Part shown: positions 8,146-18,126 of the stretch, one piece after another
Position numbering within the stretch: the stretch's first letter is position 1
Layout of the letters: each line of letters opens with the position of its first letter
Origin: an uncultured virus (IMG/VR IMGVR_UViG_3300024946_000002)
Lineage: Duplodnaviria; Heunggongvirae; Uroviricota; Caudoviricetes
Length of the DNA: 20,000 bases
Virus record (IMG/VR): IMGVR_UViG_3300024946_000002
Strand: one strand, 5' to 3'
Position numbers and translations under genes: made by a program
Notes under the pieces: generated by a model
What the model saw: the letters and a program-made list of their open reading frames with translations, nothing else
Told to the model about the DNA's origin: nothing
Database searches by the model: none

Positions 8146-8787
8146 ATGGAATTTAAAGATTGGTTAAAATCAAAAATGGCAAAAAGAGAGCTTAATAGTG
8201 CCTCTCTTGCGGAAGCTATTAGCGAAAATCAACCAACAATTTATAGAATATTAAGTGGCGAAACAAAAAACCCAAGACTGCACATAGTAAAAAAGATTGA
8301 ATCATTTTTTAATGAAGAGTTTTTAAATGCTGAAGCAATGTCAACAACAACATCTACAAGTGACATTGTAATTAATCAATACCATGACATAAGGGGCGCT
8401 ATGGGAAATGGCTTAGTGCTTCGGGGTGAATCTGGGCAAATAACAGGATGGAAAGTGACGCCTGAGTGGCTAAACAAAAATGTACCATCTAACACTGGCA
8501 ATAAGAATTTGACTATCGTTACAGGCTTCGGTGATTCAATGAGGGGAATGTTTAACTCTGGTGATCCGTTGCTAGTAGATGCTGGCGTTAAAAATTTAGA
8601 GTATGACGGTGTGTATTTCTTTAGGATTGGTGACGAAGGTTTTATTAAAACACTTCAAAGAATACCAGGTGAAGGTATCAGAGTGATTTCTGAAAATAAA
8701 AAATACGAAACATGGACAATTACTAAAGATATGGAATTTGAAGTCTTTGGCCGCGTTTTAAAGGTATGGAAAAGCGAAGAGTTTTAG
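8146..8787 (+). CDS. cI: CI-like repressor (XRE HTH plus S24 autopeptidase)
   Basis: N-terminal HTH (NSASLAEAISENQPTIYRILSGETKNPR), AMGNG cleavage-loop region, GDSM catalytic Ser, FIKTL catalytic Lys, VFGRV end. Confidence 0.95.
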   Translation: MEFKDWLKSKMAKRELNSASLAEAISENQPTIYRILSGETKNPRLHIVKKIESFFNEEFLNAEAMSTTTSTSDIVINQYHDIRGAMGNGLVLRGESGQITGWKVTPEWLNKNVPSNTGNKNLTIVTGFGDSMRGMFNSGDPLLVDAGVKNLEYDGVYFFRIGDEGFIKTLQRIPGEGIRVISENKKYETWTITKDMEFEVFGRVLKVWKSEEF

Positions 8788-9351: not shown

Positions 9352-9367
9352 AAATATTTCAATACAC

Positions 9368-9391
9368 AACCTGCTTCGGCAGGTTTTTTTT
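9368..9391 (+). terminator. Intrinsic terminator of the cI operon
   Basis: AACCTGC-TTCG-GCAGGTT followed by a T run. Confidence 0.9.
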
Positions 9392-9428
9392 CGCCTAAAA
9401 ATCTAGTTTGTAAAAATATTAACAAATA

Positions 9429-9470
9429 ATACGAAAATGTATTGACTTTTATAATACGAATATGTATAGT
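9429..9470 (+). promoter_or_regulatory. PL-like promoter with two OL operators
   Basis: TTGACT (9442-47), 17-bp spacer, TATAGT (9465-70). Operators ATACGAAAATGTAT (9429) and ATACGAATATGTAT (9454) match the OR consensus. Confidence 0.87.
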
Positions 9471-9516
9471 TCAAACATCGCTACAAAACATCGTTTCGAT
9501 ACTTCCCCAAAGTTTA

Positions 9517-9550
9517 AGGGTGAAAGCTTCGGTGAGTAGCCCTCTTTTTT
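9517..9550 (+). terminator. Leader hairpin with U-tail (attenuator-like), containing a GAA/AGUA internal loop
   Basis: AGGGT-GAAA-GC-TTCG-GT-GAGTA-GCCCT then CTTTTTT, between PL and the first gene. Confidence 0.5.
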
Positions 9551-9561
9551 AGGATTCAATT

Positions 9562-10653: not shown

Positions 10654-11613
10654 ATGAGTACAGCATTATCAGAACAGCAAAATTCAGGGTTGGCATCATA
10701 CAACGACAACATGATGATGGACGTTCAGGCGATGAAGCACATGATGGATGTTGCTAGCTTTATGTCTGGCGCAACAATGACATTGCCACAACCGTATCAA
10801 AAGAACCCAGCTAACTGCTTAGCGGTAGTGATGCAAGCGGCGCAATGGAAGATGAACCCTTTTGCAGTTGCTCAAAAGACACACTTTGTTAATGGCACTA
10901 TCGGCTATGAGGCGCAGTTAGTTTCTGCGGTAATTCAGCAATCTGGTGTAGTGACTGGCATGTTCGAGTTTGAATGGTTCGGTGACTGGTCAAAGGTTAT
11001 CGGAAAGTTCAAAGAAGTCGAAAGTAAATCTAAGACAGATGACTATGGCAGACCTAAAAAATACAAAGTTCCAGCATGGGATTTTAAGGATGAAGAAGGT
11101 CTTGGCATTCGCGTATCAGCAACATTACGTGGTGAAAGTCAGCCTCGCGTTCTTGAGTTGCTTCTAACTCAGGCAACAACTAGAAATTCAACATTATGGG
11201 CAGATGATCCTAAGCAGCAAATTGCATATCTTGGTGAAAAGCGTTGGGCTAGATTGTATTGCCCTGGCGTTATCTTGGGTGTTTATACATCGGATGAGCT
11301 AGAAACTATCCCTGCTGAAAAAGACATTACGCCAACTCAAGATAGCGCCAAAGCCGAACCTGTTTATTACACAGATGATGAATTCAATGCTAACGAAAAA
11401 GCATGGAAAAAAGTGATAGCAAACGGCAAAGCACCTAAACAGTTTATTGCCTTCGTTGAAAGCAAAGGCAAGTTATTCACGGAAAACCAAAAAGAAGAGA
11501 TTGAGCTTTGGTCACCAAAAGAGAAAGCGCCTACCGTTGTTGAAGGCGAAGCAACCAAAGTAGATGACAGTTTTACAGCAGCCTACGAAAAGGCAGAAAG
11601 CGCAGCTAAATAA
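10654..11613 (+). CDS. recT: RecT-family single-strand annealing protein
   Basis: NPANCLAVVMQAAQWKMNPFAVAQKTHFVNGTIGYEAQLV and RNSTLWADDPKQQIAYL..KRWARLYCPGVILGVYT.DE. Confidence 0.92.
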   Translation: MSTALSEQQNSGLASYNDNMMMDVQAMKHMMDVASFMSGATMTLPQPYQKNPANCLAVVMQAAQWKMNPFAVAQKTHFVNGTIGYEAQLVSAVIQQSGVVTGMFEFEWFGDWSKVIGKFKEVESKSKTDDYGRPKKYKVPAWDFKDEEGLGIRVSATLRGESQPRVLELLLTQATTRNSTLWADDPKQQIAYLGEKRWARLYCPGVILGVYTSDELETIPAEKDITPTQDSAKAEPVYYTDDEFNANEKAWKKVIANGKAPKQFIAFVESKGKLFTENQKEEIELWSPKEKAPTVVEGEATKVDDSFTAAYEKAESAAK

Positions 11614-11614
11614 C

Positions 11615-13237
11615 ATGAACATTCATAACTTAGTACAAGGTACACCAGAGTGGCACGCACACCGCGCTAATTACTTCAACGCAAGTGAAGCGCCAGCCAT
11701 GCTAGGTGTTAGCAAATACACAACACGCGACCAGTTAATCCATTCTATGGCAACTGGACTAACCAAAGAAGTAGATGCTAGCACACAAAAGATTTTTGAT
11801 AACGGCCATAAATTTGAAGCCCTAGCACGCCCTATTGCCGAAAAAATCATCGGTGAAGATTTATACCCTGTTGTTGGCTCAATGGGTGAATACAGCGCCT
11901 CATTTGATGGCATTACGATGGGCGAAGATATTATCTTTGAACACAAAACGCTAAACGATGAGCTGCGTGAATGCTTTGCAAATGGTGAGCAAACACCTTT
12001 GATGTATCGCGTACAGATGGAGCAACAACTAATGGTTTCAGGCGCTGAAAAGTGCCTATTCATGGCATCAAAATGGGATGGTGAGCAATTAGTAGAAGAG
12101 TTGCATTGCTGGTACACCCAAGACATAGAGCTACGTAAGCGCATTGTGGATGGCTGGAACCAATTAAAAGCTGATTTAGATGCATACGTTCCACCAGTAA
12201 AGGTTGAAAAGGTAGAAGCTGAAACAATCAAAGCCCTACCAGTGCCTAGCGTTGTGGTACGTGGTGAAATTACTGCATCGAATCTAACTGAAATCACACC
12301 GCAGTTCGATACTTACCTAGAAAGCATAAAAACAGAGTTAAGCACTGATCAAGACTTTGCGGACGCAGAAGCTAATGCTAAGAACTGCCGCGAAATGGCA
12401 AAGCGCATCGAGGCATTGCAAGAAAACATCATCGGTCAAATGGTGACAGTTAACGAAGCAAACGGCATTCTTGAGAACTACAAAAAAGCATTTAACGCGA
12501 TTGGTCTACGATTAGAGAAAGCAGTTAAAGATCAAAAAGAAATGCTCAAAACGCAAGCAATCATGAAAGCAAATGTGGTTTACGCTGATTTTGTAACTGA
12601 GTTAAACAAAGATATTCCAGTATTGCTTGCACAGAAATTGGTACGCCCTGACTTTGCCACTGAGATTAAAGGCGTTAAGACACTAGAAACAATGCAATCA
12701 CGCATCAATAGCGCATTGGCTAACGGCAAGGTAGAAGCAACCACCTTAGCGAATGACGTTAAATCAAAACTAGCCTATATCAATGAAGCAATCAAAGGCT
12801 ATGAGCACTTGGTTAACGTGAATGCAATCGTGTTTGGTGACATTGATTATATCAAACTACACATTCAATCAGTAAAAGACGCTGAGGACGTGCGCAAAGC
12901 TAAGCATGAAGCCGCTATCAAAGAGCAAGCCGAAGCAGATGCACGCGCCAAAATTGAAGCCGAGGCCAAAGCTAAAGAGGCTGCTGAAATCAAAGCACGC
13001 GAAGAGCTTGAAGCGCAAATCATTGCTGAGGCTAAGAGCGATGACGGTGCTGTTGTTGACGCGACATTTAACGAATCTGACTTTAAGAATGTGTTTGCAG
13101 AACCAATACAGAAAATTGCAAACGCTAAGCGCCCTACTGCTCAAGCAATCATCGCCCTAGTAGCAAAGACATACAACGTTGATACAGCTACGGCTAATCG
13201 CTGGTTGTCGCAGTCTTTTGGGTTGCAGGCGGCTTAA
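11615..13237 (+). CDS. yqaJ: YqaJ/lambda-exonuclease-family recombinase with a long coiled-coil C-terminus
   Basis: LVQGTPEWHAHR...ASEAPAMLG, GH..E..AR, SASFDG......FEHK, YRVQMEQQL.VSG. The likely start is the ATG at 11615, right after the recT stop. Confidence 0.9.
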   Translation: MNIHNLVQGTPEWHAHRANYFNASEAPAMLGVSKYTTRDQLIHSMATGLTKEVDASTQKIFDNGHKFEALARPIAEKIIGEDLYPVVGSMGEYSASFDGITMGEDIIFEHKTLNDELRECFANGEQTPLMYRVQMEQQLMVSGAEKCLFMASKWDGEQLVEELHCWYTQDIELRKRIVDGWNQLKADLDAYVPPVKVEKVEAETIKALPVPSVVVRGEITASNLTEITPQFDTYLESIKTELSTDQDFADAEANAKNCREMAKRIEALQENIIGQMVTVNEANGILENYKKAFNAIGLRLEKAVKDQKEMLKTQAIMKANVVYADFVTELNKDIPVLLAQKLVRPDFATEIKGVKTLETMQSRINSALANGKVEATTLANDVKSKLAYINEAIKGYEHLVNVNAIVFGDIDYIKLHIQSVKDAEDVRKAKHEAAIKEQAEADARAKIEAEAKAKEAAEIKAREELEAQIIAEAKSDDGAVVDATFNESDFKNVFAEPIQKIANAKRPTAQAIIALVAKTYNVDTATANRWLSQSFGLQAA

Positions 13238-13261
13238 AGAATCCCGTAGAGGAGTGCTGCG

Positions 13262-13426
13262 CGGTTTGTCCTAAATGGACGTTGCCTAACGTAAACCGAA
13301 TGGAGCGTTGAACAGTAGCCGATTGACTGGCGTAAGCAGTCACATGAATTAAGCCGACTTTATGATGTGGCGCATCACTAAAGCCAATGCGTAGGCTACC
13401 TCTTGTGGGGTTAAGTCGGTTTAATT
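13262..13426 (+). ncRNA. Cluster of structured RNA elements (three-way junction, hairpin, four-way cloverleaf)
   Basis: CGGTTT/AAACCG (13262-98) encloses GTCC/GGAC and CGTT/AACG. TGACTG/CAGTCA hairpin at 13324-42. A 14-bp stem AATTAAGCCGACTT/AAGTCGGTTTAATT (13347-13426) encloses three hairpins. Confidence 0.55.
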
Positions 13427-13574
13427 GATGGGTAATGCGTAGGCTGATACGCGGGCTGTGAAGCTAAAGGTTATTGAAGTACGACAAGGTTGCTCCTTCC
13501 CCTTGTTATGAGTAGATAGCAATGACGCGGAATGGTTTTGCAATGCCAGAGTTCAGTACTGGCACCCATCACCA
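13427..13574 (+). ncRNA. tRNA-like RNA (148 nt) with acceptor stem, D-like and T-like arms and encoded 3' ACCA
   Basis: GATGGGT/ACCCATC 7-bp stem plus ACCA, GCGT-AGGCTGAT-ACGC arm, GCCAG-AGTTCAGTA-CTGGC arm, and a long central hairpin instead of an anticodon arm. Confidence 0.7.
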
Positions 13575-13593
13575 ATTTTATGAAAGGTAGATC

Positions 13594-13935
13594 ATGGCTG
13601 TACTTGTTGAAGTTAAAAATGCAGTGATTAAAAAAGCAATTATAGACATAGGTGATAGAGGCTTTCTTACTGCAAGCCTACATCTTGACTATGGAGTGTG
13701 CATGCAACAATTTGGCGGCTTTGCACTATACCTACCAAAATCATTTGACCACCATAGATTAAATAGCAGTGCAGGACATTTTATTTTTAGAGTTTTGCAA
13801 ATTGCAGGCGTGGAACGTTGGGATCAGCTACAAAATCAGTGTGTTCGCGTTAAAGCAACTCACTCAGGCGTTATAGAAATAGGCCACATTATTATAGAAG
13901 ATTGGTTCAACCCTTTAGAAGACTTTAAGGAGTGA
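13594..13935 (+). CDS. Conserved hypothetical phage protein
   Basis: GAAAGG SD. NAVIK...DRGFLT..L.LDYG..QQFGG.AL...FIFRVLQIAGVERWDQL....VRV pattern. Confidence 0.85.
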   Translation: MAVLVEVKNAVIKKAIIDIGDRGFLTASLHLDYGVCMQQFGGFALYLPKSFDHHRLNSSAGHFIFRVLQIAGVERWDQLQNQCVRVKATHSGVIEIGHIIIEDWFNPLEDFKE

Positions 13936-13938
13936 TAA

Positions 13939-14013
13939 ATGGCAAAGCAATCTAAACGCAGCATTAAAAAGTCACGTAGAACTAAAGACCAAGATAAATG
14001 GCGGTGGCTATGA
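13939..14013 (+). CDS. 24-aa basic mini-ORF coupled to the HNH gene
   Basis: AAGGAG SD, MAKQSKRSIKKSRRTKDQDKWRWL*, ATGA overlap with the HNH start at 14010. Confidence 0.45.
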   Translation: MAKQSKRSIKKSRRTKDQDKWRWL

Positions 14014-14519
14014 AAAATATAAATGAAGATTTAATAAAAGAATTTCTTACCTACAATAAATTTACAGGTAAATTTTATTGGACTAAAGACTCTAAATTCT
14101 ATAAAAAAAATGAAGTTGCTGGATATTTAAGGCCTGATGGTTATGAAGTTATAACTATAAATGGGATTAAATATCTTTCTCATAGACTCGCATTTGTTTA
14201 TGTAAATGGAGATATTGGAAACTCAATAATAGACCATATTAATGGTTTGAGAAGTGACAATAGAATTGATAATTTAAGGATTTCTGACAAAAAAAGTAAT
14301 GCTAGAAATTGTGGAATTTACCAATCAAATAAATCAGGTTTTAAAGGAGTTACTTTTATAAAGTCAACTGGAAAATGGAGAGCTAGCGCAAGTTTTAACG
14401 GAAAAAGTAAACATATAGGTAATTATGAAACAAAAGAATTTGCTCGAGATGCTTACATAAGTTTTATAAATGAAAACTATGGTGAATTTATACATCATAG
14501 TCTATCAGCCAAAGATTGA
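14010..14519 (+). CDS. HNH homing endonuclease with C-terminal AP2 domain
   Basis: YLSHRLAF.Y..G......IDHINGLRSDNRIDNLR.....NARN, then NKSGFKGV....STGKWRAS...GK.KHIG.Y...E.A..AY. Markedly AT-rich. Confidence 0.92.
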   Translation: MKNINEDLIKEFLTYNKFTGKFYWTKDSKFYKKNEVAGYLRPDGYEVITINGIKYLSHRLAFVYVNGDIGNSIIDHINGLRSDNRIDNLRISDKKSNARNCGIYQSNKSGFKGVTFIKSTGKWRASASFNGKSKHIGNYETKEFARDAYISFINENYGEFIHHSLSAKD

Positions 14520-16520: not shown

Positions 16521-16703
16521 ATGAAAAACATTTATGAAATCAAAGATTGGATGGAGTACCTAGGCGCAAGCCGTGCAACGGTATCACGCTATATCAAATC
16601 TGGACTTATTCCAAAACCAGACCATATAGAGCCTCGCCCACGTTGGAATAAAAGCCCTATGACACTTGGGCTTCAATCCAATCAGAGTAATACTGCATCA
16701 TAG
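16521..16703 (+). CDS. xis: Excisionase / AlpA-like recombination directionality factor
   Basis: IKDWMEYLGASRATVSRYIKSGLIPKP......RW is a winged HTH of the AlpA/Xis type. Last gene of the early operon, adjacent to int. Confidence 0.82.
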   Translation: MKNIYEIKDWMEYLGASRATVSRYIKSGLIPKPDHIEPRPRWNKSPMTLGLQSNQSNTAS

Positions 16704-17838
16704 CGATTCTATGTTCAAGATACTCAGCACGATTATATGAAGCTCGCACATCATCTATTTCATTGTGTGCGAGTTGGCGCTCTATCCAATCTTTATCAAA
16801 GCGCCTACGACCATCAATCGTTTCATTGTTAAGCACAGTAGAGGCTAATGCCCTAAAGCCGTGGCCTGTCATTTTGCCTCGATACCCTAAACGATAGAGT
16901 GCAAATAATAGGGTATTCTCACTAATCGGATGGTTAGGCCGTTTAAGTGATCCAAGCACATACTTATCATCGCCAGTGTATTGCTCAAGCTCTTTGATGA
17001 TACTCAGTGCGAATTTAGTTAATGGTACTACGTGAGGCTTAGGCGTTTTTCCGGTAACCGTTTTCATGCGCTCACCAGGGATTACCCAAAACCTACCATC
17101 TTTAATTTCTTTACGCTCGAAATACCTTAGCTCAGTGGTCCGCACAAAGGTTAACGCCAATAACATCAAGCCAAGCCTAGTAACAGGTTCGTCATAGCTT
17201 TTAATTGCTTGAAACAGGTCTTTAGCTTCACTCACATCAATACATGGCATATGCGTGCGCACAGGCGTTCTGAGCACGCTGCATAAATTAGTTGCTGGAT
17301 GCAGTTGTATTTCATCGGTATTAACGGCATGCGTAAACACCTGCCCTAACCTACTGGCTATTCTGTTAGCAGTTTCAACAACACCTTTTGATTGAATTCC
17401 CTGCACCAACTCGACCAGCTCTTTGCGCGTAATCTTATCTAGTGGCTTGTCACCTATCTTCTCAAAAACATATTGGTCCATACTGGCCTGAATAATAGCC
17501 TTATGCTTCTGGCTTTTCAGATCAGGCAGATGATGCTTGTACCATTTCTCTTCGACAAACTGCTTGAAAGTCATTACACGGCTTTCAGTTAAGCCATGTA
17601 GCTTCAATCTCGCCTGCTCATCTTTAAACTCTGAATTTAATAATCTAGCCTTAGCTAAACTAATCTCAGGATATAGGCCATAAGTTTTGGTTTTGTATTT
17701 GTCTTGTGAATCTTTGTAGTTGTATCGCCATGATTTGATATTGCGAGGCGTAACTACTAAGTAAAGCCCTGCCATATCAGCAATCTTATATTGCTGCGCT
17801 TTAGGCTTTAGAGAATCAATCTGCTTAATGGTTAGCAT
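16657..17838 (-). CDS. int: Tyrosine integrase (P4-like, N-terminal arm-binding domain)
   Basis: MLTIKQIDSLKPK...YKIAD..GLYL.V...KSW.Y.Y arm domain. Catalytic R (TFVRTTELR), K (RMK), HGFR, LAH and Y (YNRAEY). Confidence 0.96.
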   Translation of the reverse strand: MLTIKQIDSLKPKAQQYKIADMAGLYLVVTPRNIKSWRYNYKDSQDKYKTKTYGLYPEISLAKARLLNSEFKDEQARLKLHGLTESRVMTFKQFVEEKWYKHHLPDLKSQKHKAIIQASMDQYVFEKIGDKPLDKITRKELVELVQGIQSKGVVETANRIASRLGQVFTHAVNTDEIQLHPATNLCSVLRTPVRTHMPCIDVSEAKDLFQAIKSYDEPVTRLGLMLLALTFVRTTELRYFERKEIKDGRFWVIPGERMKTVTGKTPKPHVVPLTKFALSIIKELEQYTGDDKYVLGSLKRPNHPISENTLLFALYRLGYRGKMTGHGFRALASTVLNNETIDGRRRFDKDWIERQLAHNEIDDVRASYNRAEYLEHRIAMMQYYSDWIEAQVS

Positions 17839-17841
17839 GCT

Positions 17842-18118
17842 GATACCCTAAACTGATTTAGCGAATACCCAATGCGATACCCTAAAATATTTTGGCTAGG
17901 ATTGTTTATACATGATGAATTGTGACGCATGATGTAAGCACATGATTAACTGCAAGGGCAGTCAGTATAATGCTTTCAGCTTACTTTGTGGGGAGTTTTG
18001 ATGAAGTTTGACGAACGATGAAAAAACTTGAAAAAGAGTAACTGGTAGGCAGTAGCTCTATCACAAACTTAATTCAATCAATTACTTGCGGATTTGATAC
18101 CCTAAATACAACCTTAAA
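17842..18118. other. attP region (arm-type repeats, IHF site, candidate core)
   Basis: GATACCCTAAA at 17842, 17876 and 18096, with degenerate partners at 17864 and 18108. Perfect IHF consensus AATCAA-TTAC-TTG at 18076-88. Candidate core TGGTAGGCAGTA at 18043-54 (reverse complement ends ...CCTACCA like a tRNA 3' end). Confidence 0.8.
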
Positions 18119-18126
18119 TGCTTTGT

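Follow-up and report, generated by a model that had tools for sequence, protein, structure and literature searches.

The stretch of DNA analysed here (the window, 20,000 nucleotides) is the first 20 kb, read on the reverse strand, of a virus record that measures 43.9 kb and has terminal repeats (IMG/VR IMGVR_UViG_3300024946_000002, an uncultured member of the Caudoviricetes), and the subject of this analysis is a 356-nt non-coding gap (13238-13593) that separates an open reading frame (ORF) encoding a YqaJ-domain protein (11564-13237) on the left from a 113-aa ORF (13594-13935) on the right. The gap holds four successive segments on the + strand: a leader segment (module A, 13238-13322), a 6-bp hairpin (module H, 13324-13342), a cloverleaf-like four-way junction (module C, 13343-13431, core 13347-13426) and a tRNA-shaped RNA (module M, 13427-13574), the "tRNA mimic" of the initial annotation. 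According to the ORF list of the window, the gap is the longest interval between plausible genes, as had been proposed, the runners-up being ~288 nt (17839-18126) and 210 nt (9352-9561), and no ORF of at least 30 aa spans 13344-13420 on either strand. The earlier description of the gap as almost entirely paired is overstated: it is structured as a whole, yet its minimum free energy (MFE) gives a z-score of only -2.11 on the + strand (1/100 shuffles as good) and -1.18 on the - strand. Modules C and H, on which this text centres, belong to an RNA grammar that recurs unannotated among temperate phages, lambda included.

The four-way fold of the C core is both its MFE structure and its centroid, at -30.6 kcal/mol (z -4.39, equalled by 0/200 shuffles), and consists, as initially annotated, of a 14-bp closing stem (including one G.U pair) and the arms TGATG/CATCA, AGCC/GGCT and CCTC/GGGG. 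When the segment is extended to 13343-13431 the energy reaches -36.3 kcal/mol (z -5.85, 0/200 shuffles); the - strand folds worse (z -3.53). The extended closing helix has 18 positions (13343-13360 with 13413-13430), of which 17 are paired and one is a G.G mismatch, and it ends 4 nt inside M, while the 3' end of the core (13426) directly abuts the 5' end of M (13427), the closing stem of which thus begins at the very next nucleotide, as had been noticed before.

In nine contigs C is 93-100% identical to the window, whereas the 3' half of yqaJ in the same contigs is 77-91% identical where alignable, and their downstream core and ORF are unrelated to those of the window. An alignment of the nine distinct C sequences is 95% identical, variation being confined to three bases in the 5' strand of the first arm, the third-arm loop, which also has a 1-nt indel, and, in L115 and L120, the outer stem; the third-arm loop varies freely (TTGT/TAGC/TAGT/AC-T) while ~50 interior nucleotides are invariant. 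For the first arm, RNAalifold prefers GUG/CAC. After addition of a homologue of the stem from a more distant phage (L252), four stem haplotypes are available, in which 67/72 cells are paired and compensatory double changes occur at 4/18 positions; the G.U pair at position 11 is kept in 4/4 haplotypes and the G.G mismatch at position 4 in two of the four. In L252 this close homologue of the C stem surrounds a different, shorter interior, a single hairpin, which indicates that the helix and its position are conserved at a distance, and the cloverleaf interior only within the close clade.

Hairpin H (TGACTG-GCGTAAG-CAGTCA, 13324-13342) is present exactly as first described (z -2.97, 1/200 shuffles) and is present in a single copy in the 43.9-kb genome. 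Nine copies can be aligned, from eight loci that include phages whose YqaJ is only 47-60% identical (L012, with two copies, L013 and L026): 53/54 cells are paired, three of the six pairs show compensatory change (7 cells), and the resulting score is reached by 0/500 shuffles. The CGUAA core of the 7-nt loop (N-CGUAA-N) and a CG four bases upstream of the hairpin (13320-13321 in the window) are invariant, two U.G pairs are compatible with the + strand only, and all 10 of 10 canonical copies (6-bp stem, TGRYTS type) lie on the yqaJ strand. The bare 5-mer CGTAA forms the loop of 12 hairpins where its permutations average 7.1, an ordinary frequency; the evidence for H is therefore its covariation and not its count. 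On this evidence H can be regarded as a new, covariation-supported RNA motif of Methylophilaceae-type phages (the probable host is treated below). In L012, L013 and L129 a hairpin at the position of H is followed by another stem-closed element, of 17-19 bp, which has ...CGAYU / UUAAGUCG... in common with the C stem; the hairpin loop of L129 differs from that of H, and in another phage, L296, the loop reads ACGUUAC. A scan with TGATAGCA-N-GCACTCTA returned 91 stretches, and the only real ones were three already known relatives of the L012/L013-type element. Two otherwise different loci (L005, 4262-4360; L012, 5207-5300) also have in common a ~95-nt non-coding module (...GGCGAAATTCAC...GCTACGTAAATAGTCGGGCAGG...) with a CGTAAA loop motif.

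Module M is closed by GAUGGGU (13427-13433) paired with ACCCAUC (13564-13570), followed by A13571 and CCA (13572-13574), and contains a first hairpin (13434-13452, AATGCGTAGGCTGATACGC), a variable core and a last hairpin (13545-13563, GCCAG-AGUUCAGUA-CUGGC; in DNA, GCCAG-AGTTCAGTA-CTGGC). It folds with a z-score of -2.31 (13427-13572) and is called by neither ARAGORN nor Rfam. An acceptor-type 7-bp stem with A and CCA, a feature of RNase P substrates, can thus be read in the sequence at the 3' edge of C; cleavage itself is only predicted. The 3' end of M runs into a conserved junction on the + strand (13566-13596, ...CAUCACCA|AUUUUAUGAAAGGUAGAUC AUG), the translation start region of the following ORF, which is 100% identical over 21-31 nt in nine of the 13 loci compared.

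For module A, within which a three-way junction (13262-98) had been proposed, the data do not support a defined structure. Folded alone, 13262-98 adopts an MFE structure different from the proposed one; the whole segment gives a z-score of -0.91 (35/200 shuffles as good); and in L011, the closest relative, 13281 G>T and 13298 G>A each break proposed pairs and are not compensated. The segment is common only to L011 and L112, at 96-97% identity.

Relatives were gathered in five scans. YqaJ relatives in IMG/VR numbered 405, of which 80 were kept; a scan for the conserved 3' junction yielded 12 IMG/VR stretches; and an 18-mer of C was found in 10 IMG/VR stretches (10/10 real carriers), in 16 stretches of metagenome contigs (12 real carriers) and in four stretches of GTDB genomes, none of them real (chance matches in unrelated contexts). 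The resulting sample comprises 12 distinct cassettes, including that of the window. All 12 consist of C followed by the stem-closed RNA M, whose 5' and 3' strands are conserved, reading UGAUGG(G)...(C)CCAUCA-CCA in most, and whose core belongs to at least six unrelated types between like flanks. C is preceded either by H or by a real tRNA-Met(CAT), the latter in L010 and L084, where it ends ...CACCA three bases before C; where such a tRNA is present, its CCA end contributes one extra pair to the helix. In L004 a real tRNA-Arg(TCT) takes the place of C and M together and ends at the conserved junction (...ACCA|AUUUUAUGAAAGGUAGAUC-AUG), so that the junction of the window (...ACCA|AUUUUAUG) here follows a tRNA gene. 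The real tRNA genes of the relatives therefore share slot and orientation with the gap RNAs; unlike the elements of the window, the tRNA-Met and tRNA-Arg are called by ARAGORN and Rfam. Over 13 loci the 3' half of yqaJ is 68-91% identical to the window where alignable, and the M core and the 113-aa ORF are unrelated. Independent assortment of the modules, which the initial annotation had singled out as informative, is thus seen among related phage loci, and its reading of the gap as a polycistronic small-RNA cassette is broadly right, given this assortment and the real tRNAs in the slot; the switch that it offered as an alternative is not supported, as discussed below.

Two further arrangements were observed in the slot. 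L026 (4550-4790) carries the H hairpin, then a 16-bp stem-closed element and two T-arm-like pieces with canonical GGTTCGATTCC loops, up to an ...ACCA end; these pieces are not ARAGORN tRNA calls and look like remodelled or decayed tRNA genes. In L008 and L009 (4670-4830) an unrelated 150-nt sequence is present and the tRNA-Arg survives only as the terminal 13 nt of its 3' end, before the junction, which suggests replacement via recombination inside the tRNA. In addition, L109 and L114 lie on one metagenome contig (106,891 bases) that contains the cassette twice, 53 kb apart, and probably represents a ~53-kb phage genome assembled head to tail.

Beyond this clade, a covariance model of C matched L052 (E 0.016), a GC-richer phage with a YqaJ 43% identical, in which a helix of 19 positions (18 paired) runs into UGAUGG-UG-AAUGCGCAGGCUGAUGCGC...GCCGGAGAUCAGCACCGGC-CACCAUCA; with filters off, further matches on both strands, owed mainly to the helix, include L252, L266 and L246. 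Pieces resembling ...GAUGACGACCGAAC...AAAGCC are common to C, L052 and L276, by eye only. The wider family was defined by conserved hairpins inside a closing stem (AAUGCGYAGGCUGAURCGC ... GCCGGAGAUCAGCACCGGC); its pattern AATGCGYAGGCTGATRCGC, carried by the first hairpin of M, is found in at least 121 stretches of IMG/VR. In the 81 instances analysed, a 5' strand is followed by a first hairpin, a variable core, a last hairpin and a 3' strand able to pair with the 5' one, and 78/81 are closed by an exact 6-mer complement; from motif start to the end of the 3' strand they measure 70-307 nt (median 118). Stem and CCA counts were made in 78 members, 54 of which have the last hairpin by a simple pattern (GCCGG-AGAUCAGCA-CCGGC). 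M of the window, with both conserved hairpins and its 7-bp closing stem, is a member. The loops of the first and last hairpins could moreover interact: GGCUGA in the former is complementary to UCAGC in the latter, a motif seen in 47/82 instances (absent in 28, no hairpin by pattern in 7), and the window, with UCAGU, would form four pairs and a G.U, which suggests a Watson-Crick "kissing" elbow in place of the D-loop/T-loop contact of tRNA.

An upstream stem of at least 12 pairs with at most one mismatch that ends inside the 5' strand of M is found in 32/78 members, against 10/78 for control stems ending 40-60 nt further upstream; examples of such stem elements are L052, L296, L252, phage HK75 and lambda, and the family stems reach 19-26 pairs. 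In L252 the unit of stem element and tRNA-shaped RNA occurs twice in tandem with identical closing-stem sequence, so that the spacer is bounded by the 3' strand of the first unit and the 5' strand of the second, which pair with each other; CAUGA of the window (13343-13347), which faces UGAUG of M with one G.G mismatch, is a remnant of this tandem arrangement. An exact upstream copy of the M 3' strand was considered as a general rule and rejected, an exact 7-mer being found in 1/64 members (control, 2). The overlap of the stem with the 5' strand of M is real but imperfect and partial.

The family extends to well-studied phages. An enterobacterial member (L250) matches 189 GenBank phage records, and HK75 and CUS-3 carry the cassette in the interval from tR' to the holin gene, where it is unannotated or, in the CUS-3 record, labelled "bsq3/bsq4; boundary sequence". 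From the HK75 late leader, 501 nt spanning the cassette match prophages in 1415/5426 complete Escherichia coli genomes (141 over at least 80% of the length), with no RNA gene annotation under this stretch. In lambda itself (L349, NC_001416), just after tR' in the late leader, a stem element (44787-44863, z -3.68) overlaps an unannotated stem-closed RNA of ~85 nt (44858-44942, z -3.63), and within 44787-44942 both elements beat all 200 shuffles. Rfam has no family for the late-leader cassette, and a literal literature search for the family motifs returned no paper.

In the window, the gap lies in an operon on the + strand that starts with a cI/LexA-like gene at 8146 and includes RecT (10654-11613, Pfam PF03837), which precedes the YqaJ-domain gene (557 aa, a RecE-like exonuclease, PF09588) that anchors the slot. 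The 113-aa ORF is the first after the gap and is followed, 420 nt downstream of the RNA array, by an ORF with HNH_3 and AP2 domains and a homing-endonuclease-like architecture (13998-14519); homing-endonuclease-like genes are often found near variable tRNA regions in phages. Small ORFs come next, and an integrase gene (16657-17838) is convergent to the operon. A 24-codon ORF (13940-14014) encoding a very basic peptide (MAKQSKRSIKKSRRTKDQDKW...) is 76-97% identical at the nucleotide level in six of the 13 related loci, though the preceding ORF differs. The phage is temperate and lambda-like. Methylotenera, or else another bacterium of the Methylophilaceae, is its probable host, as integrases 97-98% identical to that of the window bear the source name Methylotenera sp., the sole basis for this assignment; no integrase match occurred in a class-level sample of 401 genomes reached via unrelated loci.

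The "early PL transcript" from which the RNAs had been proposed to be processed is a label by analogy, given an operon that begins with the cI/LexA-like gene. In the gap no promoter or terminator consensus stands out (one weak promoter-like site, 2.3 expected); a candidate promoter inside C (GTCACA-16-TATGAT) was rejected, its -10 becoming TATAAC or TATGAC in relatives and its -35 being replaced where a tRNA precedes C. Four RNA-library runs, available as low-depth contigs only, gave one 182-nt contig (13452-13633) that joins the 3' end of M to the next ORF. As no promoter or terminator stands out and this contig bridges M and the ORF, the gap is probably transcribed with the operon.

Searches of the gap against known elements were negative. 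BLASTN against 50,697 GenBank phage records gave no match, and ARAGORN calls no tRNA gene in the window. Rfam gives no match there at gathering score (Rfam 15 includes no match to Bacterial Y RNA (YrlA), C4/CI immunity RNA, a riboswitch or a self-cleaving ribozyme); in 13100-13700 no tRNA match is obtained even at E up to 10, the sole match being an S15-leader at 13544-13617, judged to be chance, and in the 12 related loci Rfam at E up to 0.1 finds tRNAs only. Complementary 12-mers (two, 0.5 expected) and 11-mers (seven, 4.4 expected) to the gap in the 43.9-kb genome are not above shuffles and give no antisense target.

Since C beats shuffles on the + strand, its stem changes are compensated, real tRNAs share the slot and upstream stems are found in 32/78 family members, C and H are best read as cis-acting spacer or processing modules co-transcribed within an RNA array that occupies a tRNA slot, a reading to which we assign a probability of roughly 0.5. 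C would then be the spacer or leader half of a two-part cassette, a long-stem element directly before a tRNA-shaped RNA. Its very stable helix would fold first and insulate neighbouring modules from each other, and it may mark the place where host enzymes of tRNA- or rRNA-type processing cut the polycistronic transcript: RNase P would cleave between 13426 and 13427, where M begins, the 18-bp extended helix might be a target of RNase III, and M would be released. After cleavage, the yqaJ message, or a freed H-C RNA of ~85-105 nt, would end flush with a 14-bp helix able to resist 3' exonucleases. The structures with their strand and conservation, the exchange of modules, the setting in a tRNA slot and the place of M in the family are observed; we infer transcription as a single RNA, every cleavage and each stabilising effect.

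Several results weigh against this reading. Over the whole of C, covariation amounts to one compensatory pair, a result matched by 112/500 shuffles; in the TGATG/CATCA arm 7/45 cells lack pairing, and the other two arms are invariant, so that it is energy and sequence invariance that carry the cloverleaf as such. The stem of L115 is a hybrid with two mismatches, and the high identity of C could reflect recent module exchange and not selection. Family-wide, the upstream long stem is absent, or missed by a crude scan, in 46/78 members, and CCA occurs within 9 nt of the M 3' strand in only 28/78, from which it follows that an RNase P-type 3' determinant is not general. No RNA-library contig covers 13224-13439, which at low depth and with contigs only is uninformative on the expression of H or C. 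Above all, the ~50 invariant interior nucleotides of C are needless for a mere spacer and point to a specific partner: they are the main fact that a cis-acting role leaves unexplained.

It is this invariance that keeps alive the rather unlikely alternative that C, and perhaps H, are trans-acting small RNAs, freed when their tRNA or tRNA-like neighbours are processed and able to bind a particular factor of host or phage (as a decoy or sponge against a tRNA-directed defence enzyme, for instance). Such a role would account for an interior that does not change in nine distinct sequences while one loop is free to vary, and for an invariant CGUAA loop atop the covarying stems of H; in L010 and L084, moreover, C lies between a tRNA 3' end and a tRNA-like 5' end, the maturation of which would excise it, and in lambda the 63-nt core of the stem element equals in size the ~63-nt RNA LPR2 (bioRxiv 10.1101/2024.10.31.621285), a correspondence that is our own. 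However, no partner is known, antisense matches in the 43.9-kb genome do not exceed chance, no Rfam family matches, and neither L252, the closest homologue outside the clade, nor the enterobacterial stem elements conserve the interior. Somewhat less probable again is that the conserved segments act as DNA, as "boundary sequences" or linkers at which RecT/YqaJ recombination swaps cassettes, with RNA structure as a by-product. C and the 31-nt junction are indeed islands of 93-100% identity around unrelated cores, at least six core types lie between like flanks, recombination genes adjoin the gap and the CUS-3 record uses this very label for the equivalent late-leader stretch, but hairpins would be superfluous in a linker, the retained G.U and U.G pairs are compatible with a single strand, folding is better on the + than on the - strand, compensatory changes in H and the C stem preserve pairing and not sequence, and throughout the family the stem varies in sequence in concert with the 5' strand of the module that follows.

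The 12-mer AATGCGTAGGCT, which was correctly reported in both the cloverleaf and the tRNA mimic, occurs in the window only at 13386 and 13434, its first copy (13386-13397, + strand) forming the loop and 3' strand of the second arm of C and its second lying within the family-defining hairpin AAUGCGUAGGCUGAUACGC of M (13434-13452, + strand). Two copies within 48 nt had led to the idea of a conformational switch, UACGC (13448-13452), the partner of the M copy, being in principle able to bind the C copy instead. Such a switch now seems very improbable: the C copy is unchanged in all 12 distinct cassettes, including all nine distinct C sequences, the downstream copy (at most one mismatch) is present in only 3/6 core types, the MFE structure of the whole gap keeps both hairpins local, and in the wide family the motif sits in a conserved hairpin with compensatory changes of its own (GCGUA/UACGC to GCGCA/UGCGC). 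The alternative pairing that does recur is another, in which the extended C stem takes the first 4-5 nt of the M 5' strand. As the shared 12-mer belongs to the family-defining hairpin, it may also be seen as a partial copy of M in C, and UGAUG...CAUCAC in C resembles the M closing stem, so that C could be a decaying relic without present function, either a degenerate tRNA or a partial duplicate of M; tRNA fragments do occur in the slot (the GGTTCGATTCC pieces of L026, the tRNA-Arg 3' end alone in L008/L009). We consider this improbable, since a relic would not remain 93-100% identical beside a gene at 77-91%, fold 4-6 standard deviations beyond shuffles or show compensated stem changes. Speculative, and hardly more probable than a relic, is an RNA counter-defence locus in which H would mimic an anticodon arm and C and the hypervariable M would be decoys or sponges for enzymes of tRNA-directed host immunity. 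The 7-nt loop of H, N-C-G-U-A/U-A-N, presents G-U-A (G-U-U in L296) at the place of a Tyr or Asn anticodon, after a pyrimidine, and YGUN is the context cut by colicin-E5-type and some retron- or toxin-linked anticodon nucleases. If true, this would explain the fast turnover of payloads between similar phages and the alternation with real tRNA genes in the slot.

If instead C and H are processing or insulating elements, as preferred here, they would represent a general grammar for embedding tRNAs and tRNA-shaped RNAs in the operons of temperate phages, with a stable stem element for each tRNA-shaped unit and payloads swapped between conserved stems. The cassette goes unannotated in many lambda-like phages, lambda included, and others have real tRNA genes in its place; the proposal would, if true, bear on how the level of late-gene expression is set. 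Because the lambda late leader has this layout, as do prophages in about one in four complete E. coli genomes, the proposal lends itself to direct testing in the best-studied phage system.

Its closing stem of 14 bp, its second loop of 8 nt and the lack of any T-loop or D-loop signature set C apart from real tRNAs, and H is no tRNA either. The closest parallel in position is the tRNA slot of lambdoid and P22-like phages, where tRNA genes lie at the head of the late operon (Asn/Leu in phage L, Asn/Thr in Sf6) and their excision is described as an open question (PMC8022706): in both cases the RNAs are non-coding, within an operon, on the gene strand and variable between relatives, and the late-leader place of the enterobacterial family members is this same known tRNA gene site. 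Lambda has the two-part layout of the window: a long-stem element forms its outer pairs with the 5' strand of the stem-closed RNA that follows, and the whole occupies a leader that separates regulatory from structural genes, although the lambda elements have no sequence similarity to C; and whereas enterobacterial phages keep the stem and vary the interior, the clade of the window keeps all of C.

RNase III processing sites in the lambda late transcript are the reported subject of a 1988 paper by Daniels et al., to go by its title. RNase III processing hairpins (T7 early, lambda N-leader/sib, rRNA stems) are double helices between cistrons that make some two turns, classically ~20-22 bp, and often contain an internal mismatch; the helix of C, with 14 bp or with 18 positions including one G.G, is shorter than the classic length. 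A discrete ~63-nt RNA, LPR2, has also been reported from the lambda late operon, near 6S RNA (same preprint), and by our own count the core helix and interior of the lambda stem element amount to 63 nt; in our reading the 44787-44863 hairpin may be the RNase III site or LPR2.

Host RNase P is known to process phage RNAs other than tRNAs (phi80 M3, P1/P7 C4) as well as operon mRNAs (PMC11143913), and M, which ends in A-CCA where the tRNAs of relatives do, resembles these temperate-phage RNAs with an acceptor-like stem. Unlike P1/P7 C4, the window has no Rfam C4 match and no antisense target, and C has no acceptor or CCA end. In the tRNA cluster of T4, small stable non-tRNA RNAs (species 1 and 2) are interspersed and matured with tRNA genes, and the homing-endonuclease-like gene near the array adds to the likeness, though T4 is virulent and its tRNA cluster a dedicated one. 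Lastly, the "boundary sequences" of lambdoid mosaics, reportedly described by Clark et al. in 2001, are likewise short conserved non-coding stretches at the edges of exchangeable modules; those of the window differ from them in being strand-specific, RNA-type helices with compensatory changes.

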